Positions 2,922-62,503 are shown, counted from the first letter of the stretch. The stretch is 64,000 nucleotides of DNA from Bacteroidota bacterium (GCA_013377115.1 JACAAW010000002.1:2200-66199), one strand, 5' to 3'. The notes: a model not told the origin generated them from the sequence alone. Numbers and translations: made by a program.

Positions 2922-3764
2922 ATGAAAATATTCAAATCTATATTGCTTCTAAATAATTTTTTGAACGAAATACGAAGTCAAAATAAGACTATTGGTTTTG
3001 TTCCAACAATGGGGGCGCTGCATAGCGGACATTTGTCTTTATTGAAAAAATCAAAATCAGAAAATGATTTTACAATCTGCAGCATTTTTGTCAATCCAAA
3101 ACAATTTAACAATAAAGAAGATTTAGAGAAATATCCTCGAAATATCGAAGACGATATCGAAATTTTAAAAACAGTAAATTGCGATATCCTTTTTTGTCCA
3201 TCTGAAGAAGAAATGTACCCAGAAAAAAATGATGAAATTTTTGACTTAGGAGGTTTGGATAAAGTAATGGAGGGGAAATATCGACCAGGGCATTTTAACG
3301 GTGTTGCAATCGTTGTAAAAAGGTTTTTTGATATCATTATGCCCAACCAGGCTTACTTTGGGGAAAAAGACTTTCAGCAAATGAGAATTATTCAGCACAT
3401 TGTTGGTTTTAATAAAATGCCAATCCAGATTGTTCCAGCTCCAATAGAACGCGAAAATGATGGTTTGGCTATGAGTTCAAGAAATGTACGCTTAAACCAA
3501 GAGGAGAGAAAAATTGCCCCCAAAATTTACCAAACACTCCTAAACGCTAAAGAAATGGCAATAAATTGTACATTTTCGGAAGTTATTAATTATGTAAATA
3601 GAGAAATAGCATCCATAAAACCCTTTAAATTGGAGTATTTCGAAATAGTAAATATTCAAAACCTAAAGTCTGTTGAAGACTTCAGTGAGAAAAAAAACTG
3701 TATTGCTTGTATTGCAGTTTATTTAGGAGATGTGAGATTGATTGATAATATAATTTTATTTTAG
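2922..3764 (+). CDS. panC: pantoate--beta-alanine ligase
   Basis: Carries the motifs GFVPTMGALHSGHLSLL, FVNPKQF and GEKDFQQ. The length (280 aa) fits, and panD follows. Confidence 0.95.
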   Translation: MKIFKSILLLNNFLNEIRSQNKTIGFVPTMGALHSGHLSLLKKSKSENDFTICSIFVNPKQFNNKEDLEKYPRNIEDDIEILKTVNCDILFCPSEEEMYPEKNDEIFDLGGLDKVMEGKYRPGHFNGVAIVVKRFFDIIMPNQAYFGEKDFQQMRIIQHIVGFNKMPIQIVPAPIERENDGLAMSSRNVRLNQEERKIAPKIYQTLLNAKEMAINCTFSEVINYVNREIASIKPFKLEYFEIVNIQNLKSVEDFSEKKNCIACIAVYLGDVRLIDNIILF

Positions 3765-31968: not shown

Positions 31969-31978
31969 ATAAACTTAA

Positions 31979-34900: not shown

Positions 34901-35593
34901 CAAGGAACTGTTGAAGATGTTAGTGAACAAAAAAAGGCTCAAGACCAAATAAAGTCTGCTCTTGAAGAAAAAGAAGTTTTATTAAGAGAGGTGCATCATA
35001 GGGTGAAAAATAATATGCAAGTTATTCTTTCATTAATAAATATGCAAAAACTAAGCATTACCGACCTCGATGTTTTAAATAAATTTCGCGAACTACAAGA
35101 AAGGGTAAGAACGATGTCTATGGTTCATGAGGATTTGTATATTTCTGATGATCTTTCAAAAATTGAATTCGGAAATTATCTAATAAATTTAACCAATAAC
35201 CTTTTTAGAGTTTATGGATCAAGGAAAGATATTTTTATTCAATTTGATATTCAGGAAAATATCTTTTTGTCTCTTGATTTTTCTATTCCCTGTGGATTAA
35301 TTGTTAATGAAATACTAAGCAATGCTCTGAAATATGCTTTCCCAGAGAATTTTTCCCAAAAATCTCAAAAAACAATAAGCGTAAAACTTTCTAGCGAATC
35401 TAATGAAATTAAATTGGAAATTTCGGATAACGGAATGGGACTTCCTCCAGATTTTAATTTTTCGAAATCAAAAACAATGGGAATACGCCTTATAAATGTA
35501 CTAGCAAACGATCAACTAAATGGAAAAATAAGCGTTCTAAATAAAAATGGAACTCATTACGAAATCACTTTTCAAACAAAAGAAAATGCATAA
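31979..35593 (+). CDS. cytoplasmic multi-PAS/GAF sensor histidine kinase, HisKA_2 type
   Basis: 1204 aa with repeated PAS blocks, each ending in DIT(E/Q)RK-type linkers. The same transmitter is present: [17 protein letters not shown] ... [12 protein letters not shown] ... DNGMGL. Confidence 0.85.
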   Translation: [1204 protein letters not shown]

Positions 35594-46029: not shown

Positions 46030-48093
46030 ATGAAAAAAATTCTAATCTTTTCTATTGTCACAATCCTTTCTTTTGCTTTTACAAATACCGCAAAATCTCA
46101 AACCGAAGATTTTAAAACCAAATATGATCTTGCCGAAGGGATGATGAATGATGGAAATTACACTGCAGCTTTACAGATTTTTTTATCATTAGATTCCATT
46201 AAACCACAAAATTCAAATATTAATTTTCAAATTGGAATGTGCTATATTAATTCTACAAGCGACCAAACAAAAGCAATTCCTTATTTTGAAATGGCAAAGA
46301 AAAATGTATCAAAAAAGTATACTGGTGGTTCAAAAGAGGATCGTTGTTCTCCTTATGTATTCTATTATTTAGCAAAAGCATATCACCTTGACTATAATTT
46401 GGACAAAGCAATTGAGTATTTTAATAAATTCAAAGAGTATTTTAATTATAAAACAGATCGTGCTATCGTTGAACAAGCCGACAGACAAATAGAAATGTGC
46501 AACAATGCAAAAAAATCAATGGCAGATGCAGGTAAACTAAAAATTGAAAATTTAGGTCCCAATATTAATAGTCCTTATCGAGACTACTCTCCCGTAATTT
46601 CTTTAGATGGGTCTACTTTAATTTTTACATCACGTAGAAAAGTTGGCGAAAATCCTAAAAAAGAAAAAGATGGCAGATACTTTGAAGATATTTATATTTC
46701 AAAATATAATTCTGAGACAAAACAATGGGATCAGGCAAAAAGTATTGGAGATTCAATTAATACAAATCTTCATGAAGCCTCTATTAGCTTGTCTGCGGAT
46801 GGCAAACAATTGTTTTTATACAAAAGTGATGGAAAGGATGGAAATATATATGTAAGTAAAAACATAGATGGCAATTGGAGTTCTCCGCAAAAATTGCCCG
46901 AACCTATTAATTCAAAGGCTTGGGAAACCCATGTATTTTTAACAACCGATGGAAATACTTTATATTTTGTAAGTGATCGTTCTGGGGGTTTTGGTGGAAG
47001 AGACATTTATTCTAGCAAAAAAATATCAGAAGGTGTTTGGGATAAACCTATTAATTTAGGTCCTGTTATTAATACAAAATACGAGGAAGAATCTCCATAT
47101 ATTGTTACAGATTCTTCGGGAACAACTTTATACTTTAGTTCAAAAGGACAAGGAAGTATTGGTGGTTTCGATATTTTTACTTCCAAACAAAAAATTGATG
47201 GCACTTGGTCGGAACCAAAAAGTATGATTTATCCAATTAACACATCGGATGATGACGTTTTCTATGTTCCAACTCAAGATAAAAAACATGCCTATTATGC
47301 TTCTGGTAAATATGGAGGACTTGGTGATTTAGATTTATATTATGTAACAATTCTAAATGAAGGTAAAGCCGATTCCACAAAAATTGACACAATTGTTACA
47401 CAACCTGTCGACACCGCAAAAATTGTTAAAAATGTAATTACTCCCCAGGATACCGTTAAAAATATAGTTGTAATACCTCAAGATACTGTTAAAAATGTAG
47501 TAATTACTCAAGTGGATACTAATAAACTTAACATCTATACCGTTCAGGTTGGTGCAGGAAATATGAACTTAAGTTATTTTAGTAAAGTTAAAGATTATGA
47601 AATAAAACTCAATAAGAAAGATCTATTAAAAAGATTTATTGTAGGTCGTTTTACCAATAAAGAAGAAGCTTTTACTTTTAGACAAAAAATGGTATTTCTT
47701 GGCTATGAAGACGCCTTTGTTAGAACAATTAGTGCCACAAATGATATTGATGTAGGAGAAGGTGTTATTATGAGAAATGTATATTTTGAAAATACTACTT
47801 TAAAACCTGAGTCTAACAATGAAATAAATAAATTTATAGATTTTTTAAAATTAAACCCTAGTTTTGTAATCGAGATTTCCTGTCATACCGACAATACTGG
47901 TGATGCAGCAACTAACACTTCATTAACAGACAGTAGAGCAAAATCGGTAACAGAATACATTGTTTCGAAAGGAATTGAGCCAAGCAGATTGTCTTATAAA
48001 GGTTATGGTTCTAAGAAACCTTTTGCAACTAACTCCACAGTAGAAGGCAGAAAAACAAACTGCCGAACCGAATATTGTATTATTAAAAAATAA
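46030..48093 (+). CDS. OmpA-family protein with N-terminal TPR and TolB-like PD40 repeats
   Basis: Signal peptide, then TPR-like helices. The PD40 pattern repeats (SPVISLDGSTLIFTS, LSADGKQLFLYKS, TTDGNTLYFVSDRSGGFGGRDIY, TTLYFSSKGQGSIGGFDIF). C-terminal OmpA-like domain: HTDNTGDAATNTSLTDSRAKSV. Confidence 0.85.
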   Translation: MKKILIFSIVTILSFAFTNTAKSQTEDFKTKYDLAEGMMNDGNYTAALQIFLSLDSIKPQNSNINFQIGMCYINSTSDQTKAIPYFEMAKKNVSKKYTGGSKEDRCSPYVFYYLAKAYHLDYNLDKAIEYFNKFKEYFNYKTDRAIVEQADRQIEMCNNAKKSMADAGKLKIENLGPNINSPYRDYSPVISLDGSTLIFTSRRKVGENPKKEKDGRYFEDIYISKYNSETKQWDQAKSIGDSINTNLHEASISLSADGKQLFLYKSDGKDGNIYVSKNIDGNWSSPQKLPEPINSKAWETHVFLTTDGNTLYFVSDRSGGFGGRDIYSSKKISEGVWDKPINLGPVINTKYEEESPYIVTDSSGTTLYFSSKGQGSIGGFDIFTSKQKIDGTWSEPKSMIYPINTSDDDVFYVPTQDKKHAYYASGKYGGLGDLDLYYVTILNEGKADSTKIDTIVTQPVDTAKIVKNVITPQDTVKNIVVIPQDTVKNVVITQVDTNKLNIYTVQVGAGNMNLSYFSKVKDYEIKLNKKDLLKRFIVGRFTNKEEAFTFRQKMVFLGYEDAFVRTISATNDIDVGEGVIMRNVYFENTTLKPESNNEINKFIDFLKLNPSFVIEISCHTDNTGDAATNTSLTDSRAKSVTEYIVSKGIEPSRLSYKGYGSKKPFATNSTVEGRKTNCRTEYCIIKK
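47425..47520 (+). repeat. three tandem 30-33-nt coding repeats (VKNVITPQDT / VKNIVVIPQDT / VKNVVITQVDT)
   Basis: Read directly from the sequence. The repeats are in frame within the linker of the OmpA-family protein. Confidence 0.7.
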
Positions 48094-48123: not shown

Positions 48124-50283
48124 TTATTTTTTTAATGAGAGCTCATTTAAAAGATATCCCGCTCCTGCATATTTTTCAATTAGGAATAAAATATATCGAA
48201 TATCAACATTGATGCACCTTTGAAGCTCTGGCTCAAAAGCGATAGAAACACTCGTGGCCTCCCAATTAATATCGAAAACTAATCCTACCAACTCTCCATT
48301 TCCATTCAAAACCGGAGCTCCAGAAGTTCCGCCTGTAATGTCATTATTTGTTATGAAGCAAACTTTAACTTTTCCATTTTCGACATAAGTCCCAAAATCA
48401 CGATCCCTGTATAATTCCTTAAGCTTTTCAGGAACATCGAAATCTTGTTTGTTTGGATCAACCCTATCCATTAATTCTTCAAAAGTTGTATAATAATTAT
48501 AGTTTTTCTGACCTGTCGGATTATAATCGGTAACTTTTCCATAAGAAAAACGCATCGTTGAATTTGCATCAGGATAAAAAGATTTTCCTTTTTCCAAACT
48601 CATTATTCCATCAATAAATAATCTTGTGTGTTCCTCTAAATCCAATTTTGCTTGATTAAATGGTTTCACAATTTCCTCATGTTTTTCAAAAAAAGAAACC
48701 ATGGTAGAATATGCAGGATCCTTTTCTATTTTTTTATAATCCGGTTTTATTAAAAACTCCAAAACCTTATCTTTGCTAGAAAAAATTGATTTTTCAAACA
48801 TGTCATTTACAAAGGATTTTACGTCACCCTTGAACTTTTTTTGAATTACTTCTTCATATATAAGTGGAAACTGATTTTTTGGAACATCCTCAAAATACAT
48901 TTCAAGCAATGCTAAAGTTATTTTCTTGTCTGTTTCTAAGTTATAACTTTTAAAATATTGTTTTGCAGCATAAATTAAATTCTGGGTTAAACTATTTATT
49001 TTTTCTTGGTTATCGCCAACTTTAAGTTCGTTATATAAATCTTTAAATTGAAATGCATAATTCAAGATCTCGCCACCTCTGTTTATTGCTTCTTTATAAT
49101 AAACTTCAGAAACATTATATTTTCTCAAATCCTCAAACGTTTTGGAAAGTTCATTCAAAACATTTCCATATATTTCTTTTCTTTTGGGAGTTTCATTTAC
49201 CCACTTCGTAAACGCTTCTTCCGTTTTTTGTTTTTTGTCTATTACATTTAGTTTTGTTAAAACTTGTATTTGACCAGTAAAATATTTCCAATAATTATCC
49301 GTGCGTGCATATTTCGATGCATACTTAATCCTTAAATCTTCGCTTTGATCCATATCTGCTTTCATTAAATCTAATTTCATTCCGCGAATTTTAACAATTG
49401 AAGGATTGGTCTGTTCTAACAACATTTTAACACCATAAGAGGACAAAAATCTATCTGTTGTTGCAGGATAACCCAAAACCATAGTAAAATCATCTTTTTT
49501 TATCCCTTTTGTAGAAATTGGAAGAAAATGCTTTGGAACATAGGGAATATTTTTCTTTGAATAATCTGCAGGCTTGCCATCAGGTGACATATATATTCTG
49601 AAAAATGCAAAATCACCAGCATGCCTTGGCCATCTCCAATTATCTGCTTGATCGGCAAAAGCCGCAATTGATTCTGGCGGAGCGCCCACTAATCTAACAT
49701 CTTTATATGTTTCATAAACAAACATATAATATTCATTTCCATTAAAAAAACTTTTAACAGTTGCTGTATAAGTGGTGTTAGATGTGGCCTCTGCAGCAAG
49801 CTTTGATGAGATTTCGTCAATTTTTGTTGATCTTTGGTTTTCCGTCATCCCTGGAGTAATCTGAGACAGAATTTTTTGAGTAATATCTTCCATCCTAATT
49901 AAAAAGGTAGCAGTTAACTTATCGTTTTTCAATTCTTCCATTTTGGACATCGCCCAAAATCCATTTTTTAAATAATCCTTTTCAACAGTGCTATGATTTT
50001 GAATAAAACCATAAGCACAATGATGATTTGTCATTAATAAGCCTTCTTTTGATATCATTTCCGCGGAGCAAAAACCATCATTTAGTGATACTATTGCATC
50101 CTTAATACTCGAATTGTTGACACTATAAATTTCTTCTGCAGTTAGTTTTAGCCCCATTTTCTGCATATCAACATAATTAAGGCGATTAATCAATAAGGGG
50201 AGCCACATTCCTTCATCTGCTTTTACAACATTTTGGTTAAAAAGAAATAAAGAAAACAATAGAAAAATACCTTTTTTTATCAT
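48124..50283 (-). CDS. S46 family dipeptidyl-peptidase, paralog 2
   Basis: Same length (719 aa) and collinear with paralog 1. Motifs: ADEGMWLP, MTNHHC, TGGTSGAPV. Confidence 0.9.
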   Translation of the reverse strand: MIKKGIFLLFSLFLFNQNVVKADEGMWLPLLINRLNYVDMQKMGLKLTAEEIYSVNNSSIKDAIVSLNDGFCSAEMISKEGLLMTNHHCAYGFIQNHSTVEKDYLKNGFWAMSKMEELKNDKLTATFLIRMEDITQKILSQITPGMTENQRSTKIDEISSKLAAEATSNTTYTATVKSFFNGNEYYMFVYETYKDVRLVGAPPESIAAFADQADNWRWPRHAGDFAFFRIYMSPDGKPADYSKKNIPYVPKHFLPISTKGIKKDDFTMVLGYPATTDRFLSSYGVKMLLEQTNPSIVKIRGMKLDLMKADMDQSEDLRIKYASKYARTDNYWKYFTGQIQVLTKLNVIDKKQKTEEAFTKWVNETPKRKEIYGNVLNELSKTFEDLRKYNVSEVYYKEAINRGGEILNYAFQFKDLYNELKVGDNQEKINSLTQNLIYAAKQYFKSYNLETDKKITLALLEMYFEDVPKNQFPLIYEEVIQKKFKGDVKSFVNDMFEKSIFSSKDKVLEFLIKPDYKKIEKDPAYSTMVSFFEKHEEIVKPFNQAKLDLEEHTRLFIDGIMSLEKGKSFYPDANSTMRFSYGKVTDYNPTGQKNYNYYTTFEELMDRVDPNKQDFDVPEKLKELYRDRDFGTYVENGKVKVCFITNNDITGGTSGAPVLNGNGELVGLVFDINWEATSVSIAFEPELQRCINVDIRYILFLIEKYAGAGYLLNELSLKK

Positions 50284-51257: not shown

Positions 51258-51836
51258 ATGCAAGAAGAGGAAAAAATCATTAATGATTTAAAAAATTGCA
51301 ACGAAGATGCGCTTCAGTATTTGTATGAAAATTACAGACAGCAGTTTATCAAGTGGGCGACATACAATTACCATATTGCAGTTGAAGAGGCTGAGGATAT
51401 TTATTCTGACACAATTATTGATGTTTATCAGAATATTAGAACAGAAAAATACGTAAAACAAAGTAATAGTTCTTTAAAATCTTATTTATTTGAAGTCGGG
51501 AAATATAAAATCCTAAATCTAATTAATAAAAAGAAGTTGAATGATGTTCACCATCAAAACATTTATCATTTAAATGTTGATAAGAGACAAGATTCTCCAG
51601 AAGTTAATCAGTTTAGTGAAGACTTAGCAATAAAAGTAAAAGAGTTAATGAACTTACTTGATGATAAATGTAAGGAGGTTCTCACTCTTTACTATTTTTA
51701 TAATCTTTCAATGGAAAAAATTGCTGAAAAAATGGATTTTAAAAACGACGACGTTTCAAAAAATAAGAAATTGAAATGTTTAAGAAGGCTCCAAGAGCTA
51801 ACTTTTGAACGTTATGAAAAAGCAGATTTTTTTTAA
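51258..51836 (+). CDS. ECF-type sigma-70 family RNA polymerase sigma factor
   Basis: 192 aa. A region-2-like segment (YENYRQQFIKWATYNYHIAVEEAEDIYSDTIIDVY) and a region-4 HTH (CKEVLTLYYFYNLSMEKIAEKMDFKNDDVSKNKKLKCLRRL) are present. No region 1 or 3 is visible. Confidence 0.85.
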   Translation: MQEEEKIINDLKNCNEDALQYLYENYRQQFIKWATYNYHIAVEEAEDIYSDTIIDVYQNIRTEKYVKQSNSSLKSYLFEVGKYKILNLINKKKLNDVHHQNIYHLNVDKRQDSPEVNQFSEDLAIKVKELMNLLDDKCKEVLTLYYFYNLSMEKIAEKMDFKNDDVSKNKKLKCLRRLQELTFERYEKADFF

Positions 51837-51854
51837 TAAATAAATCCAGAGATT

Positions 51855-52586
51855 ATGAATGATATAACTTATTTTGATGATTATTACCACAAGAGATTAA
51901 GTCCTGAAGAAAATTCAATCTTCGAAGAAAAGCTTGTTTCAGATTCTGAATTAAAAAGAGAATATGATATTTTTCTCAGTTTTGTAAGTGGGATCAATTT
52001 ATTTGAAAAAGAAAGACTCAAAGAATTATTTAAAGAAAAAAGAGACGAATCGCGATTTAAAATAAATCCTTATGTCAAAGCAAAATCCTTTAAAACATTC
52101 TATTTTGCGGCAGCAGCAAGTTTGATTATTCTTCTTATTCCTGGATATTTTCTTTATCAAAAATTAAATTCAAATCAAAAAATATATAACGAGTACGTTT
52201 ACCAAGATGGAGGGATTCCAGTATTAATGGGAGCCACAAACAATGTTGATTTTAATAAAGGGATGATCGAATACAAAGATCAAAAATTTGAAAAGGCGAT
52301 TGTTTATTTTAATCAGTTATTATCAACCAATCCAAATAACGACACCTTAAATTATTACGCAGGAAACTCTTATTTATATTCTGACAATTCAGAGGCCGCC
52401 ATCAGTTCGCTTTCAAAGGTTAACTCAAAGCAATCTGCATTTTATTATCCTGCAAAATATAACTTGGCACTGGCTTATATTAAAATTAAAGAAACTGATA
52501 AAGCTAAAGCCATCTTGGAAGACCTTTCTAAATCAAACGAACATTTTCTTTGTGAAAAGGCTAAAAAACTTCTTGAAGAATTATAG
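51855..52586 (+). CDS. single-pass membrane TPR protein, putative anti-sigma factor
   Basis: Lies 18 nt downstream of the sigma gene. A cytoplasmic N-terminus of about 80 aa is followed by one TM helix (FYFAAAASLIILLIPGYFLY), then an extracytoplasmic TPR region (KFEKAIVYFNQLL..., YNLALAYIKIKETDKA). The role is inferred from topology and position. Confidence 0.55.
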   Translation: MNDITYFDDYYHKRLSPEENSIFEEKLVSDSELKREYDIFLSFVSGINLFEKERLKELFKEKRDESRFKINPYVKAKSFKTFYFAAAASLIILLIPGYFLYQKLNSNQKIYNEYVYQDGGIPVLMGATNNVDFNKGMIEYKDQKFEKAIVYFNQLLSTNPNNDTLNYYAGNSYLYSDNSEAAISSLSKVNSKQSAFYYPAKYNLALAYIKIKETDKAKAILEDLSKSNEHFLCEKAKKLLEEL

Positions 52587-52587
52587 A

Positions 52588-54501
52588 TTATTGCTTTCGC
52601 ACCAAGTTTAATGAGTATCCAATAACAATTAGCAATAGAAAAATAATAATTCCAAGGTTAAACTTGCTATTATCTTCGAAAGCGTATGGACTTGGATCCC
52701 CACTAAAAACAAACCCTCCCCAAAAAAAAGGATTTGCCGTAGTTTCATTGGATTCTTTTAAATATTTGATTTTTGCTTTATGCAAAGCCTCATCTTTGTA
52801 ATGCCCAGCTAAAATTCCTTCATAAAAGTATTTTAAAAGCTTATTGGTTTCCTGTTCGTCAACCTCCCAAAGCGAATAAACAAGTGATGGGCATCCAGCA
52901 TAGCTAAAACCATGAGATAAACTCATTATGCCTTCGCATTTATTAAATTGTCCAATACCGGTTTGACAACTAGCCAAAACAACCAAAGAGGCTTTAAATT
53001 GCATATTGTATAAATCTGATGCCAGAAAAAACGGATTTTGTGTTTTTGATTTTTCAATATCCGAAAAAGCAATTTCTGTTTTCATCGGAAATTCGTCATT
53101 AACAATAGTGTGAGACGATATATGCAAAATATCAAATTTTATTGCTTCTTCCTTAAAATTATTAATTGATGCTTGCTCACGAATAAAAAAACCTCCTTCA
53201 AAAACTTTTTTAAGCTCAATTAAAAACTTCTCTGACCAGCGTTGTTCTGATAAATTCAAAAATACAGAATCTGTTAAACTGTTGCCTTTATAAAATGCTT
53301 TTAATTTAGAATCAAAAATTGGAGCAAATGCAGCAATTTTAGGGTTTTTATTATTGGACTTCAATGAAATATTTTCAAAAAGTATTGTTGCAGATGGGCT
53401 ATAGGAAAATTGATATTTATAAATTAAATAATCTAAAGACTTATAATTTGCTGAGGTTAATTTTTTATTTGTTGTTGTGAGACATTCGAAGGGAATATAT
53501 CCTAAAATTCCATCTGGAATTACAATCAATTTCTCTGTTGAGCTAAAGTACCGTTCTGTTGGCTTAATCAACGCTTCATAAAGGAGGAAAGAGGTTTTTT
53601 GATATTCATTAAAATTACTTTTTGTAATACTATTTACAAACGCTTTTAAATTTTCCTTGAATACAGAATCATTTGAAATCTTAATAAAACCATCCTTTTT
53701 CGTTCCAATAATAAAGCAATAAATTGAAGTCTCTGTGTAAAAATACTCTAAAAGAGTTGTATTTGAATTAAGCAATTTGCGTTTCACAATTTCAATGTTT
53801 GCAAAAAAACTCTTATGTTTAAGATTGTAATATTTAGGGTATTTATTTTGCATCATAAAATTCAGAGAATCTGTTTCTTGCTGCAAATAACTTAATTCCT
53901 TCTCATAAATGGCTATTTGCTTTAGATTCTGACGCTCTGGATCCTTTGCAATTTCATTATCTAAATTATTTTTACAAACAATAATTTTTGCTGAAAGGTC
54001 TTTTTCCTTTTCAAAAAGGTGAGAAGGAATTCCTGCACTGATTTTTACTTTGGCATTTTGCAATGACTCAATAAGCAATAAATTTTTGTTTTTTTCAGCG
54101 TATATGAAGGCTTTTTCCAGATATTCGGTTTTTTGGCCTTTCTGATAAAGGTCAAAAGCATTTGAAATTGCCTTTTCATAAATAGGGAAGATGAACCTTG
54201 AAAGCAATACTTTTGACCCAATATTTTTGTAATCTTTAATTATTGAATCAATTACTGCTATTGTTTTGCCAAATATTGTGAAAAGGAGTTCTGGATTTTT
54301 AGATTTTTCTAAAAGAGAAATTATTGAAAGGTAATGATTAAAGGAATTGAGATATTGTTTATCCTTTTTTAAGAATTCTGCAAATTTCAATTTACTCTCA
54401 ATATCTTCTTTACCTTGAGGATATAATACATTGCTTGCTCCAAAAGAAAAATCCTGGAGAAAAGCGATAAAAAAAACTAAAATGAAAAAAGTTTTTTTCA
54501 A
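52588..54501 (-). CDS. CHAT-domain protease with signal peptide, TPR-like helical N-region and C-terminal TM anchor
   Basis: The C-terminal third carries FDILHISSHT (His) and SLVVLASCQTG (Cys), followed by SLWEVDEQ and ANPFFWGGFVFSGDP, typical of CHAT. The final segment LGIIIFLLLIVIGYSL is hydrophobic. Confidence 0.88.
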   Translation of the reverse strand: MKKTFFILVFFIAFLQDFSFGASNVLYPQGKEDIESKLKFAEFLKKDKQYLNSFNHYLSIISLLEKSKNPELLFTIFGKTIAVIDSIIKDYKNIGSKVLLSRFIFPIYEKAISNAFDLYQKGQKTEYLEKAFIYAEKNKNLLLIESLQNAKVKISAGIPSHLFEKEKDLSAKIIVCKNNLDNEIAKDPERQNLKQIAIYEKELSYLQQETDSLNFMMQNKYPKYYNLKHKSFFANIEIVKRKLLNSNTTLLEYFYTETSIYCFIIGTKKDGFIKISNDSVFKENLKAFVNSITKSNFNEYQKTSFLLYEALIKPTERYFSSTEKLIVIPDGILGYIPFECLTTTNKKLTSANYKSLDYLIYKYQFSYSPSATILFENISLKSNNKNPKIAAFAPIFDSKLKAFYKGNSLTDSVFLNLSEQRWSEKFLIELKKVFEGGFFIREQASINNFKEEAIKFDILHISSHTIVNDEFPMKTEIAFSDIEKSKTQNPFFLASDLYNMQFKASLVVLASCQTGIGQFNKCEGIMSLSHGFSYAGCPSLVYSLWEVDEQETNKLLKYFYEGILAGHYKDEALHKAKIKYLKESNETTANPFFWGGFVFSGDPSPYAFEDNSKFNLGIIIFLLLIVIGYSLNLVRKQ

Positions 54502-54516
54502 AAAAATGAAAATTAA

Positions 54517-55218
54517 TTAATTTGTCATCAAAAGTAAATCATTTTTACTTTTCCCGACATTTTTAATTTCAATTTTATAATTTCCTGTGGTTTTTGGTGT
54601 AAAAGAAATATAGCAATTATCCGGTGTGCTGGGATTTGTTTTTATTATTGTTCCATTTTGATCATAAACAGTAAGGTTAAGAGGGGCACTTCCTTCACCC
54701 ATTACAAAAACCTCAGCTATTTCTTTAGCATTAAAAACTGTTTGCAATGCAATATTACTATTAGAATATAGGGTTATTTCTTTTACCAAAGGACTGTATT
54801 TTCTCCCTCTATTTTTTGCAACTTGATCTGAATGGGATTCTTTTTCAATTTTATACGCTAAATTAATGATTGAAGAATCATTGTCGGCGAGTTTTATTGC
54901 ATCAGCAATAAGTGAATTGATGTTTATTGAAACTTTTTTTCTTTTTGGATTCTGCGAAGAAGTATCGGCCTTACCAATAATTTCAATATTTGTTAATTTA
55001 AATTCACCTTTTATGGGGTTATCTATTAATGTTTGAGCTGCTGAAAGTAAATAAATTGGTTTATCATTTTCATAACCAAACCGAGCCAATTGCATGGCAA
55101 AAGAAACAGCAGTCATTTCTTGACTGGGCTTTTGTCCTCGTTCTTTGTTTTCCTGAGAATAGGCAGATTCCATTCCTTGAACTGACAACAAAATAAAAAT
55201 GAAAATAAAATTTCTCAT
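54517..55218 (-). CDS. 233-aa secreted protein, paralog of the 213-aa protein (unknown function)
   Basis: Signal peptide MRNFIFIFILLSVQG. An N-terminal helical part (QLARFGYENDKPIYLLSAAQTL) precedes a C-terminal beta-sandwich-like part ending GNYKIEIKNVGKSKNDLLLMTN. Confidence 0.7.
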   Translation of the reverse strand: MRNFIFIFILLSVQGMESAYSQENKERGQKPSQEMTAVSFAMQLARFGYENDKPIYLLSAAQTLIDNPIKGEFKLTNIEIIGKADTSSQNPKRKKVSININSLIADAIKLADNDSSIINLAYKIEKESHSDQVAKNRGRKYSPLVKEITLYSNSNIALQTVFNAKEIAEVFVMGEGSAPLNLTVYDQNGTIIKTNPSTPDNCYISFTPKTTGNYKIEIKNVGKSKNDLLLMTN

Positions 55219-55233
55219 GAAAATAAAATTTAA

Positions 55234-55266
55234 AAAAATACGGCTTAAAGCTTAAGCCGTATTTTT
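55234..55266 (-). terminator. palindromic hairpin between the 213-aa and 233-aa genes (terminator or attenuator)
   Basis: cggcttaa (55241..55248) pairs with ttaagccg (55252..55259), with A/T runs on both sides. Confidence 0.55.
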
Positions 55267-55290
55267 AATTATTAACAATTTTCCCAAATG

Positions 55291-55932
55291 TTAGTTAGTA
55301 ATGAAAACGCATTTCATATCATCAGTTGAAGCGTTTTTTAAAGTAATTTTATAAGATTCTGCTTTTGAAGGAGTCCAAGTAAAATAACCTTTGTCGCTAC
55401 TTTCAGATTTAACAATTTCTCCTTTTGAGTTTTCAACAATAATTTCTGGAATAGCTGCAGCACTTGATTTTACAGAAATTTCTGCTTTAGAATTAGCAAC
55501 ATAAGTGATTTGATAAACTTTTACTGCACCAGCCATAATTCTGCAATTATATGCTAAAAGTTCTGACATTGATCCTCTTGTTTTTTCTGGTTTTTGACCT
55601 TCAACTTTAGTAATCATAGCTAAAACTGCTTGATCTCCATTAGCTAATTTTTTTGCATCTTCCAATAATTGTTTTGCACTAAATTCAGCATTTTCTTCTC
55701 CAGCAACTTTCTTTTCATTTGCAGGAGTAGCGTTTAAAATAGATGCTGCAGTAATTAATGCCAAAGATGACTTGTTTTGATAACCATAATCTGCGAAATC
55801 TGCTGCTGCTGTTAAATTTGAAATTTGTTTACTTGGGGTGTTTTTTGTTGCTTGAGCGAAAACACTAGTTGTAGTAAAAATACATACAACTGCAATAATC
55901 ATTAGGTTTGTGATTTTTTTCATTTTTTTCAT
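55291..55932 (-). CDS. 213-aa secreted protein, paralog of the 233-aa protein (unknown function)
   Basis: Signal peptide ...IAVVCIFTTTSVFAQA. DFADYGYQNKSSLALITAASIL aligns with the 233-aa protein. The linker has one KTRG. The C-terminus ESYKITLKNASTDDMKCVFITN parallels its paralog. Confidence 0.7.
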   Translation of the reverse strand: MKKMKKITNLMIIAVVCIFTTTSVFAQATKNTPSKQISNLTAAADFADYGYQNKSSLALITAASILNATPANEKKVAGEENAEFSAKQLLEDAKKLANGDQAVLAMITKVEGQKPEKTRGSMSELLAYNCRIMAGAVKVYQITYVANSKAEISVKSSAAAIPEIIVENSKGEIVKSESSDKGYFTWTPSKAESYKITLKNASTDDMKCVFITN

Positions 55933-55976
55933 TTTTTAATAATTAATACTTGTTTTTAATTGTTTATGTTATTGAA

Positions 55977-58247
55977 TTATTTAGGTTTACTTGCAATCAT
56001 AACTCTGTTAATTGACCAACTTGCAGGTGTTAATAATTGTCCTCGAGTTGCGGCACCAACATTTAACAATCCTGATAAGCCACCTTTATCAATTCCTCTT
56101 GTTCTAACTCCTGTCATTTCTAAAGCTGAAGGATTTGGTAGGGGTTCATCGGTTGTAAGCATTATATAAGAGTCCATTCCAAAAGGTTCGCTGACCATTA
56201 ATTTTGTTCTTCCTAAAGCCATTTCTTTTGGAACATCCCCTTCAATAATTCTAGGGAATTGGTTTTCAACACTTCCTTGTCTTGGGTAAAGCAGGCAAGT
56301 TGTTCCTTTGCTGTCTATTACGAATACATAGATGTAGCGTTTTGAACCATCCCAGTAAGAAATATTTTCTTTATCAGAAACAAGCATTAAAGAAAGAGTG
56401 TCTCCTTTATATACTGTTCCATTTGTTAATAAATTCTTGCTAGAACCTTTTTTAATTGCTAAATTAAAAGGAAATGCGCCATCATCAGGTGGATTTGATA
56501 AAGTTAACCATGCTTTTATTTTAGCGAGTTTTAATGTGAAATCTTGCAAACTATCTGAAGTAAGATTTAATTTATTTTCTTCAGCGTTAAGCTTAATAAA
56601 ATCAGTTCTAACTGGTAATGTATTGGTTCTATTGGTGTCCAAAACAGTTACCTGAGGAATAACATAAGCATATTCTATTTGATTGTTTTCCCATCTGCCA
56701 GTTAAATAATATTGAGCATCAGTGCCACTTTGAGAAGCCTCTACAGCTGTATTAATTTTGTAACCTTCCATTATTTGGTCTTTTAAGACAGTTGTTGGTG
56801 GCAGGCTAACGAAAAGTTTATCACCATTCTTTAATTTGCTACTAACCGCTTTTTCTGTTGGAGATTTTCCTAAAGAAACATTTTTTCCATCAGGGAAACC
56901 TAACATCCATTCAGTTCCAGTATAAAAAACAGTATGAGTTGGAGCTTCGGCACTTGGATCAGAAATCCATTTTATACTTTTATTGTTTTTTAAGGTGCTT
57001 AATTGTTTTGCAATTGAAGCCAAATCATTGTAATTATAAGTGGTTTTTGGAACGTAGACTTTTAGGTTTGGACCATTTGCAGTAGACCAAGAAGCCAATT
57101 CAAACATATCCCCAGGTTTAACGTTGCCGATATCACCTTTTACCAATTGGCCAACACAACTATTAACTCCCTTCATTTGAGTAATTTTAATTTTGGCAAT
57201 GGTATCTTTATTAACCATTTTAATAAGCTCGCAATTAATATTTAATCCCGAAGCATATCCTCCTTGAAAAACAATATTGTCTTTATCCTGAGGTTTTATA
57301 ACTGGAACTAAGGTTTTTCCAGAAATAGATCCTTGAGGATATCCAAAAATGGTTTTATTTTTACGATCATCATTTCCAGCCAAAACTGGTTCTTGAGTTT
57401 TTCCGTTGTATTTCATAATAGCACGGATGCTATTAAAAATATCCGAAGTTTTTGCATTTACAGAGGCCGATTTTAATGTTTGCAATAGTGCTACAGTGAA
57501 AGCTCCGTGAGGTGAGCCGTTTTCGTCTTTTTGCTCGCTGGCAAATTCAAAATCTTGGGCTGCAGAAATAATTAAAACGCCATTATTTTCGGGTTTTGGG
57601 GAAATGCTTCCATCTTTTGCATCGGAAGGATCTGGTATCATCCAGCGCAATTTTGGTGTATCATCAGATAATTTACCTCTACCAATTGAACCACTATGAC
57701 AGCTGTCATAAATTACAGTCAAAATAACGCCTTTATCAGCAAAACTTTGAAAAATTTTTGCTAATTCTTTATCTCTAATATCTTTTGTTCCATTCCAAAC
57801 ATCGGCAGGAACCATTGTTTCGTCTTCTTTATCAGACTCGTCAGAAAGTGAATTTTTTACTTGAGATCCATGACCAGCATAATAAATTACAACCATGTCG
57901 CCTTTTTTAGAACTGTTGAGAAGTTTTTCAAACTCCCCTAAAATTCTTTCTCTTGAACATTCTTGGTTCATAATCATTGCAGTGTTTTCTTCTTTAAACT
58001 CATAACGAGACATCAGAACTTCTTTAACTGCTTTTGCATCGTTAACACAACCATCAAGATCCATCCATTCTCCCTTAGAAATACCCCTGCTATTTGAAAC
58101 CATTGCTACTGTTTCATTAGCAGGAGGATTATAAATATCAATCCCAATAAACAAGGCTCTTTTTGTTTGTGCTTTAATATTGTTTGTTGTAAAAATATTA
58201 AGGGCAATTACAAATCCTATTATTAATAATCTATTGAATTTTGTCAT
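55977..58247 (-). CDS. exported peptidase C14 (caspase-fold) protein with large beta-rich C-terminal region (DUF4384-like end)
   Basis: I start it at MTKFNRLLIIGFVIALNIFTTNNIKAQ (ATG at 58247), because the longer track ORF overlaps copy 2 of the 148-aa gene. Motifs: KRALFIGIDIY, LDGCVNDA, MVVIYYAGHGS (His), VIYDSCHSGS (Cys). The C-terminal YIYVFVIDSKGTTCLLYP resembles DUF4384. Confidence 0.88.
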   Translation of the reverse strand: MTKFNRLLIIGFVIALNIFTTNNIKAQTKRALFIGIDIYNPPANETVAMVSNSRGISKGEWMDLDGCVNDAKAVKEVLMSRYEFKEENTAMIMNQECSRERILGEFEKLLNSSKKGDMVVIYYAGHGSQVKNSLSDESDKEDETMVPADVWNGTKDIRDKELAKIFQSFADKGVILTVIYDSCHSGSIGRGKLSDDTPKLRWMIPDPSDAKDGSISPKPENNGVLIISAAQDFEFASEQKDENGSPHGAFTVALLQTLKSASVNAKTSDIFNSIRAIMKYNGKTQEPVLAGNDDRKNKTIFGYPQGSISGKTLVPVIKPQDKDNIVFQGGYASGLNINCELIKMVNKDTIAKIKITQMKGVNSCVGQLVKGDIGNVKPGDMFELASWSTANGPNLKVYVPKTTYNYNDLASIAKQLSTLKNNKSIKWISDPSAEAPTHTVFYTGTEWMLGFPDGKNVSLGKSPTEKAVSSKLKNGDKLFVSLPPTTVLKDQIMEGYKINTAVEASQSGTDAQYYLTGRWENNQIEYAYVIPQVTVLDTNRTNTLPVRTDFIKLNAEENKLNLTSDSLQDFTLKLAKIKAWLTLSNPPDDGAFPFNLAIKKGSSKNLLTNGTVYKGDTLSLMLVSDKENISYWDGSKRYIYVFVIDSKGTTCLLYPRQGSVENQFPRIIEGDVPKEMALGRTKLMVSEPFGMDSYIMLTTDEPLPNPSALEMTGVRTRGIDKGGLSGLLNVGAATRGQLLTPASWSINRVMIASKPK

Positions 58248-58293
58248 ATGGCTTGAATATTGAAATTTTATTCTTTTCTTTTTTTTATTTCTA

Positions 58294-58740
58294 TTATTTA
58301 TCTTTATCGCCACCAGCAAGTAATACAAAAGAATAAGTTCCGTTGCAGTCACCATCAGCAAACCATTCTTTAGTTTGTCCTGTTGTTATTGCATAAATGG
58401 TTTTGTAACCTGTTCTTGCTTTTACTGTTGTTTCTGCCCATGCATCTACTACGCCTTTTGATACGCCATCAACATAAACTTCTACCATAAATCCCGTATT
58501 GTTTACAACATTGATGCTACAATCTTTTTTACCTCTGGTTTTTTGTTGATCTAAAGCTGGATCTTGTTGTGGGTTTTCATCTGTTGTTGGCATTTGCGCT
58601 TTAATATGTGGGTTTTGACCTCTTGTTTTTTCTACGCTTTTTGCTTTAATTTCTACTTTTTTTACATCTTGAGCGAATGTATTTGCTGTGAAGATTTGAC
58701 TTATAAAAGCCACCATTGCGATTACTAATAATTTTTTCAT
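58294..58740 (-). CDS. 148-aa secreted protein of unknown function, copy 2 (first gene of the caspase operon)
   Basis: Its protein differs from copy 1 by a single residue (V12I). The gene lies 46 nt upstream of the C14 gene. Confidence 0.8.
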   Translation of the reverse strand: MKKLLVIAMVAFISQIFTANTFAQDVKKVEIKAKSVEKTRGQNPHIKAQMPTTDENPQQDPALDQQKTRGKKDCSINVVNNTGFMVEVYVDGVSKGVVDAWAETTVKARTGYKTIYAITTGQTKEWFADGDCNGTYSFVLLAGGDKDK

Positions 58741-59082: not shown

Positions 59083-59090
59083 TACATTTG
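59083..59090 (+). promoter_or_regulatory. candidate -7 box TAnnTTTG for gatE-gatD
   Basis: TACATTTG lies 35 nt upstream of the ATG at 59125. Confidence 0.3.
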
Positions 59091-59124
59091 AAAAATTGTT
59101 TTTAATAATTTTCAATTTCGCAAA

Positions 59125-61095
59125 ATGAAACAAAAATTCGACCCAGGTAAGAATTATAGAGAGTCTAAAAAAGCCATAGGTTATATTACTCGTAAAAAAG
59201 CTACTCAAAAAACGTATGATGATATAGGTTTCATGTCTGGACTTGAAATTCATCAGCAACTTTTAACAAAAGAGAAGCTTTTTTGTCGTTGTCCTGCTGG
59301 AGTTTATCAAAAACCAAATCAATATGATGCAGAAGTTGTTCGTCATATGCGTCCTACGCTAAGCGAACTTGGGGAATATGATGGAACAGCATTGATGGAA
59401 TTCAAAACAAAAAAGGAAATTGTTTATAGAATAAAAAATGAAACGACTTGTACTTACGAAGTAGATGATACTCCACCATTTCCAGTGAATAGAGAGGCTT
59501 TACAAATTGCTATCGAAATCTCATTATTATCAAAACTAAGTATTGTTGGCGAAGTTCACATTACCAGAAAACAATATTTAGATGGAAGTATCCCAACAGG
59601 TTTCCAAAGAACTGCAATTATTGGTGTTGAAGGAGAAATTCCACTTAAGAATAAAAAAGTTCGATTGATACAATTGAGCATGGAAGAAGATTCTTGTAGA
59701 GAGATTTCTGATATCGGACATACAAGAATTTATAGAACAGATAGACTTGGAATGCCTTTAATTGAAACCGTTACTTATCCAGACATGACAAATCCTGATG
59801 AAGTAATGGAAGCAGCCAATTATATCCGTTTTTTAAATAGAAGTACAGGAAAAGTTCGTACCGGTATTGGCGCAGGAAGAGAAGATGTAAACGTAAGCTG
59901 CAAAGGTGGAACCCGAGTTGAAATAAAAGGTGTTGCACACAATAAATGGATTCCTGAACTTACCCATAACGAATGTTTCAGACAATGGGCCTTGCTTCAT
60001 GTAGCAAAACTTCTAAAACAAAAAGAAAAAGATTCAAAAAAATGGAATCTTTCTTATGAATATCTTGATTTCGATTCATGTAATTTTACTCATGAACCAA
60101 TCCTTGATGCCAAATCAAAAAAATACAAATTGGTTGGTGTGAATTTGCCAAATTTTCAAGGAATTTTATCTCATTTTACCCAACCTGGAAAAATGTTTGT
60201 AAATGAAATTAGCGAAAGATTAAAAGTAATTGCTTGTTTGGAATTACCAAATATGACTCATTCAGAAGAGTTTGATTTCGTGATAGCTGACGATTGTTTT
60301 GCTAAAATAAAAAAGGTTTTAAAATCAGGCGAAAATGATGCACAAATAGTTTTCTGGGGACCAGAAGACGATGTAAAAACAGCAATAGAAACCATCGAAG
60401 AACGTTGCAGAATGGCTTTTGATGGCGTTCCAAATGAAACCAGAAAAGCATTGGTAAATGGAATTAGTATTTTCGAAAGAGTATTACCTGGGGCAGACAG
60501 AATGTACCCTGATACCGATTCTAAGCCAATTCCATTGGAAGATTCCTTTATCGAAGAATTAAGAAAAACGGTTCCTTCGGATATTATTGACAGATACAAT
60601 CAATTAAAGAAATGGGGAATTCCAGAAGATACTTATACTTTCATTTTTAAGAAGAATTTGTACCCACTTATTGAACGTATCATCACAGACCTCAAGCAAA
60701 ATCCTGTTTTTGTAGGAACATTCTTTGGTCATAAATTAAAATATGTTGAAGGTCATTACACCCCATCAACAGGTTTTACATATGAAAAAATTTACGATCT
60801 ATTTAAAGAAGTTCAATCGAAAAAAATAGACGTTGCTTTAATGAAATTACTTTTACCAGTGGTTTATCAACATCCAAAAATGGATTTTGATTCCGTTTTA
60901 ACAAGCATTAATTTCAAAAAAATTTCAAAAGATAAAATTGTTTCAAACATTTCCTTTTTGAAAGAGAAGTTCGACAAAATCAGAATTTCAAAAAAAGGTC
61001 ACGTTGAATCAAAATGGATAATGGGCGAATTAAGAAAAGTTGCCATTGGAAATATTTCATTGTCAGAACTAAAAACCCAAATCGAAAAAAAATAA
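59125..61095 (+). CDS. gatE: Glu-tRNA(Gln) amidotransferase subunit E, archaeal GatDE type
   Basis: GLEIHQQLLTKEKLFCRCP, RHMRPTLSELGEYDGTALMEF, YLDGSIPTGFQRTAIIG, RTDRLGMPLIETVTYPDM and GIGAGREDVNVSCKGGTRVEIKGV are present. At 656 aa it is much longer than GatB. An inserted domain and a helical tail are present, and gatD is adjacent. Confidence 0.85.
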   Translation: MKQKFDPGKNYRESKKAIGYITRKKATQKTYDDIGFMSGLEIHQQLLTKEKLFCRCPAGVYQKPNQYDAEVVRHMRPTLSELGEYDGTALMEFKTKKEIVYRIKNETTCTYEVDDTPPFPVNREALQIAIEISLLSKLSIVGEVHITRKQYLDGSIPTGFQRTAIIGVEGEIPLKNKKVRLIQLSMEEDSCREISDIGHTRIYRTDRLGMPLIETVTYPDMTNPDEVMEAANYIRFLNRSTGKVRTGIGAGREDVNVSCKGGTRVEIKGVAHNKWIPELTHNECFRQWALLHVAKLLKQKEKDSKKWNLSYEYLDFDSCNFTHEPILDAKSKKYKLVGVNLPNFQGILSHFTQPGKMFVNEISERLKVIACLELPNMTHSEEFDFVIADDCFAKIKKVLKSGENDAQIVFWGPEDDVKTAIETIEERCRMAFDGVPNETRKALVNGISIFERVLPGADRMYPDTDSKPIPLEDSFIEELRKTVPSDIIDRYNQLKKWGIPEDTYTFIFKKNLYPLIERIITDLKQNPVFVGTFFGHKLKYVEGHYTPSTGFTYEKIYDLFKEVQSKKIDVALMKLLLPVVYQHPKMDFDSVLTSINFKKISKDKIVSNISFLKEKFDKIRISKKGHVESKWIMGELRKVAIGNISLSELKTQIEKK

Positions 61096-61117
61096 ATTAC
61101 TGTTAAAAATAATAACA

Positions 61118-62503
61118 ATGAGCGAAGATTTTTTTCAAGGATATAAAGGTGCAGCCTTAGAAGTATTAAAAAAATATTCAGTTAGAGTATGGGGGCAAAC
61201 CGTAGTTCATACCACCAGAGGTACTTTTACGGGGACCGTATTGCCTAGATCTGAAAACGACGACGACAAGCATATTGTTGTGAAGATTGCAACAGGATAC
61301 AATATTGGTGTTGATGTTGGAAACATCACTGAAATGAGTGAAACTGGCTATAAGAAAGCCAACTATCAGATTCCAGAAAAGGAATTTCCTTATACAAAAG
61401 GATTGCCAAAAGTAAAATTAATAGGAACTGGAGGAACAATTGCTTCCAGACTTGATTATAGGACAGGTGCTGTAATTCCAGCTTTTTCTCCTGGTGAACT
61501 TTATGGTGCGGTTCCTGAATTGGCAGATATTTGTAATTTAACTACTGAAAAAGTTTTCGCTGTTTTTAGTGAAAATATGGGTCCTGAGCAATACATTAAA
61601 TTGGCAATTCAAATTGGGAAAGAAATTGAAAATGGTATCGAAGGAATCGTGATTGGCCACGGAACAGACACTTTACATTATACTGCTGCTGCTTTAACAT
61701 TTATGGTTCAAAATTCTCCAATTCCAATCGTTTTGGTTGGATCTCAAAGATCTTCTGACCGCCCTTCTTCTGATGCTGCATTAAATTTAATGCATGCTTG
61801 CACTGCAGCCGGACATGGAAATATCGCAGAAGTCATGGTTTGTATGTTTGGACCAACATCTGACGAATATGGTTTTTTACACCGCGGAACAAGAGTTAGA
61901 AAAATGCATTCCTCTTATCGTTCAACCTTTAGAACAATTGGAGATACACCATTAGCAACAGTTACAAGAAAAGGAGTAAATCCAATAAAACCAGAATACA
62001 ATCATCGCAGAAAAGACAAAAATGTAATTATCAAACCATATTTCGAAGAAAAAATTGGAATGATTTATTATTATACCAATATGCAGCCAGACATGATTGA
62101 TTCTATGGTTGACAATGGTTATAAAGGAATTATAATTATTGGAACTGGTTTGGGCCACGTAAACAAACCTCTTTATCCTGCAATTGAAAGAGCAACCAAA
62201 AAGGGAGTTGCAATTTATATGACGGTACAAACTATTTGGGGTTATGTTCACATGTTTGTATACGATACAGGTCGCGATTTAATGGCAAAAGGTGTAATTC
62301 CACTAGAAAATATGTTACCTGAAGTTGCTTATATTAAATTAGGCTGGGCAATGGGACAAACAAGCGATTTGGAAGAAGTAAAGAAAATCATGCTGACGCC
62401 AATAAACGATGAAATTACGAGACGCGAACCATATAATGGATACCTAGTTTATCAAGGAGGAGTTCCCGAAATTGAAGGTTTTATTAAAGAGCATCATAAA
62501 TAA
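61118..62503 (+). CDS. gatD: Glu-tRNA(Gln) amidotransferase subunit D (asparaginase-family glutaminase), archaeal GatDE type
   Basis: An N-terminal domain of about 95 aa (HIVVKIATGYNIGVDV) is followed by GTGGTIASRLDYRTGAV, HGTDTLHYTAAALTFM, VGSQRSSDRPSSDAALNL and RVRKMHSS. Confidence 0.88.
   Translation: MSEDFFQGYKGAALEVLKKYSVRVWGQTVVHTTRGTFTGTVLPRSENDDDKHIVVKIATGYNIGVDVGNITEMSETGYKKANYQIPEKEFPYTKGLPKVKLIGTGGTIASRLDYRTGAVIPAFSPGELYGAVPELADICNLTTEKVFAVFSENMGPEQYIKLAIQIGKEIENGIEGIVIGHGTDTLHYTAAALTFMVQNSPIPIVLVGSQRSSDRPSSDAALNLMHACTAAGHGNIAEVMVCMFGPTSDEYGFLHRGTRVRKMHSSYRSTFRTIGDTPLATVTRKGVNPIKPEYNHRRKDKNVIIKPYFEEKIGMIYYYTNMQPDMIDSMVDNGYKGIIIIGTGLGHVNKPLYPAIERATKKGVAIYMTVQTIWGYVHMFVYDTGRDLMAKGVIPLENMLPEVAYIKLGWAMGQTSDLEEVKKIMLTPINDEITRREPYNGYLVYQGGVPEIEGFIKEHHK

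Follow-up and report, generated by a model that had tools for sequence, protein, structure and literature searches.

Two tRNA-dependent amidotransferases are the closest described relatives of the system analyzed here. Archaeal GatDE uses as its substrate the Glu-tRNA(Gln) made by a nondiscriminating GluRS and recognizes the A1-U72 pair and the D-loop of tRNA(Gln) (PMC9499178, PMC2811023). Papers and reviews from 2009 to 2022 state that it occurs only in archaea (PMC2811023, PMC8007984, PMC9499178). Bacterial GatCAB follows the same chemistry, ATP-dependent activation and then amidation of a mischarged tRNA, and likewise recognizes the first base pair and the D-loop (PMC2811023). Its GatB subunit (e.g., Staphylococcus aureus 3IP4) is homologous to GatE in the cradle and the YqeY-type tail, but it differs from GatE in lacking the inserted domain, in its length of about 480 amino acids (aa), in its 3-10 turn and Lys-rich tail motif, and in its partners, the amidase-family protein GatA and GatC. 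Here, we describe adjacent gatE and gatD genes in a 64,000-nt stretch of DNA from a Bacteroidota bacterium (GCA_013377115.1 JACAAW010000002.1:2200-66199); this whole stretch is referred to as the window. We take the pair to encode a working tRNA-dependent amidotransferase, since all features for the known chemistry appear to be present and strongly constrained.

An earlier reading of the window, made without database searches (the sequence-only reading), had assigned the first open reading frame (ORF) to GatE rather than GatB and the second to GatD rather than a plain asparaginase. Both assignments held. The ORFs (656 and 461 aa) have the coordinates (Table 1) and the 22-nt gap that it gave, and the motifs that it quoted were all found in the translations: GLEIHQQL...KLFCRCP, DGSIPTGFQRTAI, and DRLGMPLIE in GatE, and GTGGTIAS, HGTDT, and RKMHSS in GatD.

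The first ORF is a full-length GatE. It exceeded the cut-offs of both NCBIfam GatE equivalogs (NF003107, 475 bits, cut-off 456; TIGR00134, 402 bits, cut-off 320), with alignments spanning residue about 30 to about 654, whereas six GatB models gave 53 to 128 bits against cut-offs of 315 to 680 (the best, 128 bits, against 338). Its best PDB relatives were 2d6f_C (289 bits) and 1zq1_C (270 bits), and GatB chains reached at most 78 bits. An AlphaFold2 model computed from a 50-sequence alignment (pLDDT, 83.8; pTM, 0.81) was best matched in Foldseek by the GatE chains of 1ZQ1 and 2D6F (TMt, 0.76 to 0.79; 512 to 537 columns) and more weakly by GatB chains (TMt, 0.55 to 0.69).

The cradle residues H43 (in GLEIHQQL), E187-E188-D189, R207..E214 (in DRLGMPLIE), R252-D254-N256-S258, and E266-K268 are invariant in 50 bacterial GatE sequences and align with those of archaeal GatE. 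Within Bacteroidales, the cradle is 87% identical; to other bacterial phyla, identity falls to 66%. The Pfam GatB_N profile, which has 277 positions, was stretched over aa 38 to 477 of the window GatE, and the inserted domain lies where archaeal GatE has its AspRS-like insertion, which is absent from GatB. The 3-10 turn of bacterial GatB is the site at which the first base pair is read, and GatE has a short basic loop instead (PMC2811023). At this site, the window protein has, in the N-terminal part of its cradle, a basic loop of GatE length, KVRTGIGA, compared with KVKRGLGT in archaeal GatE and VKMEEGS in GatB.

The second ORF is a full-length GatD (NF003217, 502 bits, cut-off 310; TIGR02153, 501 bits, cut-off 324) with the Pfam architecture GatD_N (aa 34 to 70), Asparaginase (aa 98 to 288), and Asparaginase_C (aa 312 to 425). 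It also passed the asparaginase subfamily model TIGR00519 (377 bits, cut-off 260.5) because the asparaginase fold is shared, but the GatD equivalogs scored higher (about 501 bits), and the protein has both a GatD_N domain and a neighboring gatE. Its best PDB relatives were 1zq1_A (390 bits) and 2d6f_A (381 bits), compared to at most 133 bits for plain asparaginases. The Thr/Thr-Asp/Lys set in GTGGTIAS, HGTDT, and RKMHSS is unchanged in all 58 bacterial GatD sequences compared and aligns with 1zq1_A and 2d6f_A. GatD identity is 75 to 89% across Bacteroidales and 63 to 69% to other bacterial phyla.

The pair thus has the same two subunits, domain order, and catalytic motifs as archaeal GatDE (Methanothermobacter thermautotrophicus 2D6F; Pyrococcus abyssi 1ZQ1): a GatE composed of cradle, inserted domain, helical region, and tail, with the short basic loop replacing the GatB 3-10 turn, and a GatD composed of GatD_N and a two-domain asparaginase-type glutaminase. 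Identity to the archaeal proteins over nearly their full length is about 50% for GatD and about 35 to 40% for GatE. Unlike archaeal GatDE, the window pair has a bacterial host. In addition, its GatE carries a 29-aa N-terminal extension, differs in the basic loop as given above, and reads A-I-G-N-I-S-L in the tail, where archaeal GatE has RG(K/R)xDG.

The pair is native to a genuine Bacteroidota chromosome. The G+C content at third codon positions (GC3) is 0.216 in gatE and 0.234 in gatD (window mean, 0.223 ± 0.031), and the codon-usage distance of the two genes is 0.19 (window, 0.24 ± 0.07). Both measures lie inside the window distribution, in line with the earlier claim that the pair shares the composition of its surroundings. 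The same holds for the claim that Bacteroidota genes surround it: elsewhere on the window, housekeeping genes of bacteria and genes characteristic of Bacteroidota were found, namely, those for Dxr, RseP, PanC, a Bacteroidota-type BamH, GlgA, an F-type ATPase operon, dimeric GlyRS, 2-oxoglutarate dehydrogenase, and two S46 dipeptidyl-peptidases. Together with the relatives on many Bacteroidales contigs, including complete chromosomes, these data show that the locus is not a chimera, as had been argued.

A protein search with GatE gave at least 8000 matches, of which the best 120 were 69 to 76% identical over the full length; many of these 120 are already named GatE by NCBI or JGI. Among genomes, one per GTDB species, at least 574 matching stretches were confirmed. 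The best 80 of these came almost exclusively from metagenome-assembled genomes (MAGs) of Bacteroidales (Lentimicrobiaceae, Lentimicrobium, Prolixibacteraceae, and similar) and included six complete chromosomes of 3.5 to 5.5 Mb (OY759717.1, OY787449.1, OY762280.1, OY762227.1, OY760934.1, and OY781965.2). Comparison of these 80 loci and the window (n = 81) showed gatD as the next gene after gatE in about 59, with gaps of 9 to 457 nt, save in L013, in which another ORF lies between the two. Linkage of gatE and gatD in Bacteroidales is therefore frequent, not universal. Clustering of the neighboring genes in the related loci revealed clade-level synteny blocks only and no aminoacyl-tRNA synthetase or tRNA-metabolism partner, and tRNA scans of the window and 84 loci revealed no recurrent tRNA neighbor.

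The pair is common and automatically annotated in environmental Bacteroidales and in several other bacterial phyla. The rarity implied by the sequence-only reading was not borne out, and its own reservation, that novelty would be lost if the pair were already common and annotated in the phylum, largely applies. As a separate observation, in the Bacteroidales MAG of L004 (12251-15418, + strand) gatE is directly followed by a gene for a 1055-aa LeuRS that contains a DUF559 (restriction-endonuclease-like) domain at residues 327 to 431 (E = 3e-36), inserted immediately ahead of the editing domain.

The helical and tail region serves D-loop recognition in GatB and GatE, and the tails are unresolved in the PDB entries of GatE (PMC2811023). 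A YqeY-like tail with a GXXAXGX motif, linked to D-loop recognition, was taken as the mark of a GatE tail. In the window GatE, the region was predicted to be all-helical with a pLDDT of around 90, and the Pfam domains GAD and GatB_Yqey, detectable in its archaeal counterparts, were not found even at E = 10, because the tail motif and the helical region have diverged. Identity in this region is 54 to 60% within Bacteroidales and 12 to 18% to other bacterial phyla. The window tail reads WIMGELRKVAIGNISL at the site of the motif LMGxxMxxxRG(K/R)xxG of archaeal and other bacterial GatE proteins. In the alignment, RG(K/R)xxG is retained in most archaeal GatE and in most GatE of other bacterial phyla, the latter with a detectable GatB_Yqey domain, whereas the Bacteroidales subclade shares a remodeled region with the motif A(I/T)GN(I/V)SL. 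A tail that is remodeled and yet conserved suggests adapted, possibly altered, tRNA recognition in Bacteroidales.

A useful sample of the presumed substrate is provided by L018, a GatE-carrying locus of the Bacteroidales clade, in which a tRNA(Gln)(UUG) gene (3193..3264, - strand) lies about 1.1 kb from gatE. The tRNA has U1-A72, A73, G37, A38, and a 7-nt D-loop in the D-arm GUGU-AACGGCA-GCAC. Its proximity to gatE is probably due to chance, since it is the only such case among the 84 loci scanned for tRNAs. If this tRNA is representative, the presumed tRNA(Gln) differs from that of archaeal GatDE in its first base pair, and the tail change is plausibly an adaptation to a bacterial tRNA(Gln) with U1-A72 instead of A1-U72.

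When all 50%-identity cluster representatives were searched, 601 clusters matched at E ≤ 1e-30, and these formed two superclades in a neighbor-joining tree. The first is 40 to 61% identical to the window GatE, and its named members are bacterial: besides Bacteroidales, which form a subclade on a long branch, it includes CSSED10-310, KSB1, Calditrichia, Latescibacteria, Krumholzibacteria, Aminicenantes, Desulfaltia, and one "Clostridiales" MAG. The second is 29 to 39% identical, and its named members are archaeal (Thermoprotei, Methanofastidiosum, Parvarchaeota, and Asgard, namely, Heimdall-, Thor-, Odin-, Hod-, and Lokiarchaeota). A neighbor-joining tree was also rooted with four GatB outgroup sequences from PLSDB records (432 columns, 100 bootstraps); a Natrinema GatE sequence from a PLSDB record, whose translation was partly out of register, was disregarded in its interpretation. 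In this tree, the bacterial clade was monophyletic in 95 of 100 bootstraps, its sister consisted of Asgard-type sequences only in 90 of 100, and archaeal GatE was monophyletic in 3 of 100. The nearest archaeal branches were those of Lokiarchaeum ossiferum, Hodarchaeales, and Thorarchaeota, whose hosts are archaeal and whose GatE is about 34 to 38% identical to that of the window. The tail motif varies among eight aligned Asgard-type GatE sequences: five have RG(K/S)xDG, Lokiarchaeum has KGSIPG, and P0194 and the Hodarchaeales sequence P0210 have no such motif.

Gene order was compared in five archaeal contexts. Three Asgard genomes share the gatE-gatD order of the window (Lokiarchaeum ossiferum and two MAGs, one of Hodarchaeales and one of Thorarchaeota; L094, L095, and L098), while the order is gatD-gatE in a Thermoprotei genome and a Parvarchaeota genome (L096, 3643-6917; L097, 3382-6869). 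In the Parvarchaeota genome, a glutamine synthetase gene is located just upstream of gatD-gatE. The other bacterial GatDE systems (KSB1, Calditrichia, Latescibacteria, Krumholzibacteria, and Aminicenantes) belong to the same monophyletic clade as the window pair and have the same operon order. In three non-Bacteroidales bacteria, represented by a 5.98-Mb chromosome and by contigs of Aminicenantes and Calditrichia, the two genes overlap by 1 to 8 nt instead of being separated by a spacer as in the window, and the neighbors encode SecA, DnaA, ribosomal protein L28, RecO, and FtsX.

The simplest reading would be one old transfer of an Asgard-type gatE-gatD unit to bacteria, with later spread within and beyond the Fibrobacteres-Chlorobi-Bacteroidetes (FCB) group. 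A single archaea-to-bacteria transfer is suggested by the rooted topology together with the shared gatE-then-gatD order, and the donor was most likely an Asgard-related archaeon. An old interdomain transfer, one of the origins that the sequence-only reading had considered, fits both the bootstrap values and the gene order.

Two single proteins in the trees had unusual layouts. P0169 (943 aa; bacterial GatE clade; 12.8-kb Logan contig) resembles a natural GatE-GatD fusion, in which a GatB_N cradle (aa 24 to 304) is followed directly by GatD_N (aa 511 to 548) and both asparaginase domains (aa 579 to 907), so that a helical or tail region would have no space. The protein may be a genuine fused enzyme that lacks the tail, or it may be an artifact of assembly or of a frameshift. 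P0186, a 781-aa member of the archaeal GatE clade, begins with about 170 additional residues that weakly match AAA_18 (P-loop kinase-like) and continues with a normal GatB_N, GAD, and GatB_Yqey architecture.

By analogy to the archaeal enzyme, the most probable substrate of the window GatDE would be Glu-tRNA(Gln) made by a nondiscriminating GluRS, which the host would then need to possess. GatD would hydrolyze glutamine or asparagine to release ammonia, and the nondiscriminating GluRS would charge tRNA(Gln) with glutamate. GatE would bind the product, phosphorylate its gamma-carboxyl group in an ATP-dependent manner, and transfer the ammonia, yielding Gln-tRNA(Gln) for translation. Both holoenzyme subunits are encoded side by side here and would form the complex. 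The 87% cradle identity within Bacteroidales argues against a decaying or redundant gene, and this strength of conservation favors a nonredundant role. Using tblastn, we detected no glnS, gltX, or asnS (Escherichia coli queries) in the window or in the 80 related loci, the sequence covered by this search. Queries for gatA and gatB (S. aureus, Legionella, Sinorhizobium, and Fusobacterium) were also without result in the window and these loci; gatC was not searched. What these searches matched were the gatE genes themselves and, weakly, one class-IIb sequence in L064.

Taken together, we consider it probable, though well short of certain, that the locus encodes a working native GatDE that uses Glu-tRNA(Gln), stems from an old Asgard-related transfer, and had its tail remodeled in Bacteroidales. 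Several points weigh against this view. In roughly 18 of the 80 loci with enough downstream DNA, gatE is followed by unrelated genes. These loci (L001, L002, L004, L009, L010, L015, L016, L018, L019, L020, L047, L049, L052, L066, L069, L070, and L076) have no gatD within the fetched flanks, and some of the closest relatives of the window are among them. The transfer scenario relies on a neighbor-joining tree of 432 columns with a distant outgroup, and gene order is unable to polarize the direction of change. Furthermore, a Glu-tRNA(Gln) amidotransferase might be redundant in Bacteroidales, since their cultured members have glnS and asnS and are without gatCAB. Finally, the substrate tRNA could differ, because Pfam GAD and YqeY are no longer detected in the window GatE.

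The redundancy argument rests on a survey of 547 genera, in which every cultured Bacteroidales genus found has one glnS and no gatCAB, while Cytophagales have gatCAB and no glnS (PMC4206432 Table S1). Accordingly, GatDE in environmental Bacteroidales could be the only route to Gln-tRNA(Gln), if these lineages have no GlnRS, or a second route. In its broadest form, the first of these options would be that many environmental Bacteroidales and other FCB bacteria have neither GlnRS nor GatCAB and depend on GatDE for all of their Gln-tRNA(Gln). The enzyme would have come from an Asgard-related donor, its reading of the first base pair and the D-loop would have shifted from A1-U72 to U1-A72 tRNA, and its tail would have been rebuilt in Bacteroidales. 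We put this forward tentatively and would not yet bet on it. If it is true, GatDE would be a third, unrecognized bacterial solution to the charging of tRNA(Gln); the statement that the enzyme is exclusively archaeal would be overturned, and the clade would represent a natural experiment in the coevolution of amidotransferase and tRNA.

The second option, in which GatDE coexists with GlnRS in these Bacteroidales as a conditional route to Gln-tRNA(Gln), or makes glutamine on tRNA when free glutamine is scarce, seems rather unlikely to us, although it is the strongest of the competing explanations. It resembles the situation of bacteria that keep GatCAB beside GlnRS and AsnRS. The glnS-positive, gatCAB-negative state of all cultured Bacteroidales genera in that 2014 survey speaks for it, and redundancy of this kind does occur in bacteria, as 68 genera carry AsnRS, GlnRS, and GatCAB together (PMC4206432). 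However, the conservation of GatD and of the GatE cradle, and the retention of the gene in at least about 570 species genomes, exceed what would be expected for a dispensable back-up.

In most bacteria, U1-A72 is present in both tRNA(Gln) and tRNA(Asn). A GatDE retuned to this pair could therefore also amidate Asp-tRNA(Asn), and its specificity would be broadened or shifted, making it a two-subunit substitute for GatCAB or a means of tRNA-dependent asparagine synthesis. The U1-A72 pair in the tRNA(Gln) of L018 and the Bacteroidales motif A(I/T)GN(I/V)SL in place of RG(K/R)xxG are compatible with such a shift, as are the cultured Bacteroidales without GatCAB, some of which also have neither asnA nor asnB (PMC4206432 Table S1). 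Nevertheless, we consider it improbable: archaeal GatDE is specific for Glu-tRNA(Gln) (PMC2811023), the other bacterial phyla retain the archaeal-like RG(R/K)xxG tail motif, and AsnRS is present in cultured Bacteroidales (PMC4206432 Table S1).

Recruitment of the pair to an amidation outside translation, e.g., of another tRNA-bound or ATP-activated carboxylate, was the other possibility raised by the sequence-only reading. It would account for a helical and tail region just 12 to 18% identical to that of other bacterial GatE and for genomes in which gatE and gatD are unlinked. But in the model all tRNA-handling modules (cradle, insertion, and helical tail) appear to be kept, no biosynthetic neighbor is conserved across the loci, and the tail is still 54% conserved within Bacteroidales, so that we regard recruitment as very improbable.

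An artifact (an assembly chimera, contamination with archaeal DNA, or a GatB and an ordinary asparaginase that were misread) has in its favor solely the general expectation that bacteria have no GatDE, and we give it practically no credence in view of the native codon usage and GC3, the bacterial housekeeping genes on the same contig, and the GatE relatives on many independent Bacteroidales contigs and six complete chromosomes, most with gatD directly downstream. On these grounds, chimera and contamination were rejected. A misread GatB was rejected on its 128 bits against cut-offs of at least 315, the length of 656 aa, and the presence of the inserted domain; a plain asparaginase was rejected on at most 133 bits compared to 390 bits for GatD in the PDB and on the presence of GatD_N.

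The Bacteroidota chromosome, the at least 574 matching stretches, and the members in other bacterial phyla contradict an archaea-only distribution of GatDE. A full-text literature search retrieved no paper on bacterial GatDE. As far as we found, the bacterial clade is thus large and annotated, yet apparently unstudied in the literature, and it contains a Bacteroidales subclade with a distinctive tail. Because annotation pipelines already name the genes, the present analysis is of value for pointing to an unstudied distribution rather than for revealing a system of a new kind. This distribution would surprise specialists, and it is neither unique to the window nor evidence of a new mechanism. 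It matters since scenarios for the origin of both amidotransferases, and for why archaea never gained GlnRS, rest on the archaea-only distribution. A strongly conserved bacterial clade implies that GatDE is able to work with a bacterial tRNA(Gln), or at least to persist under selection beside it. It also makes several questions testable: how the reading of the first base pair and of the D-loop was retuned, whether GatCAB or GlnRS was displaced, and whether the Asgard affinity reflects an old transfer.

The features of the locus are listed in Table 1. The A/T-rich spacer between the two genes contains no terminator-like site according to a terminator scan, although such generic scans were overall at chance level, and gatE and gatD are therefore probably cotranscribed. 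Upstream of gatE, the TAnnTTTG box pointed out in the sequence-only reading is indeed present. Its statistical weight did not stand: the window contains 110 matches to TAnnTTTG, compared to 116 ± 11 in shuffled sequence, so the box is no evidence by itself and is at most a candidate promoter. Sigma-70 promoter and terminator scans of the window gave signals at chance level only.

Table 1. Coordinates of the gatE-gatD locus in the window
Feature	Position	Strand	Size or extent	Description
TAnnTTTG match TACATTTG	59083..59090	+		Bacteroidota -7 promoter consensus; possible promoter; ends 34 nt before the gatE ATG
gatE	59125..61095	+	656 aa plus stop, ATG start	Kinase/transamidase subunit of tRNA-dependent amidotransferase GatDE
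GatE cradle (catalytic) domain, N-terminal part	59212..60024	+	aa 30-300	
GatE inserted domain	60025..60420	+	aa 301-432	Splits the GatB_N profile
GatE helical and tail domains	60556..61092	+	aa 478-656	All-helical in the model, strongly diverged
gatE/gatD intergenic spacer	61096..61117	+	22 nt	A/T-rich
gatD	61118..62503	+	461 aa plus stop, ATG start	Glutaminase subunit of GatDE

No tRNA gene was detected in the window by a tRNA scan. Directly upstream of gatE, positions 51258 to 58740 may represent a caspase/CHAT module. On the + strand, this region encodes an ECF-type sigma factor (51258..51836) and a TPR protein (51855..52586). They are followed by a five-gene run on the - strand, which begins with a CHAT-domain protein (52588..54501) and continues with two small secreted proteins without a family match (54517..55218 and 55291..55932), a 794-aa caspase-domain protein with a weak match to "EACC1-associated caspase" (55977..58361), and a 148-aa secreted protein (58294..58740).

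Farther upstream, the two S46 dipeptidyl-peptidase genes are paralogs of the DPP7/DPP11 type (43449..45608 and 48124..50283, both on the - strand) and flank a gene for an OmpA/PD40/TPR protein (46030..48093, + strand). The window also contains two tandem pairs of genes for large sensor kinases, at 5777-11636 and 29341-35593. One pair encodes hybrid histidine kinase/response-regulator proteins (1075 and 875 aa), and the other encodes PAS-rich HisKA_2 kinases (875 and 1204 aa).

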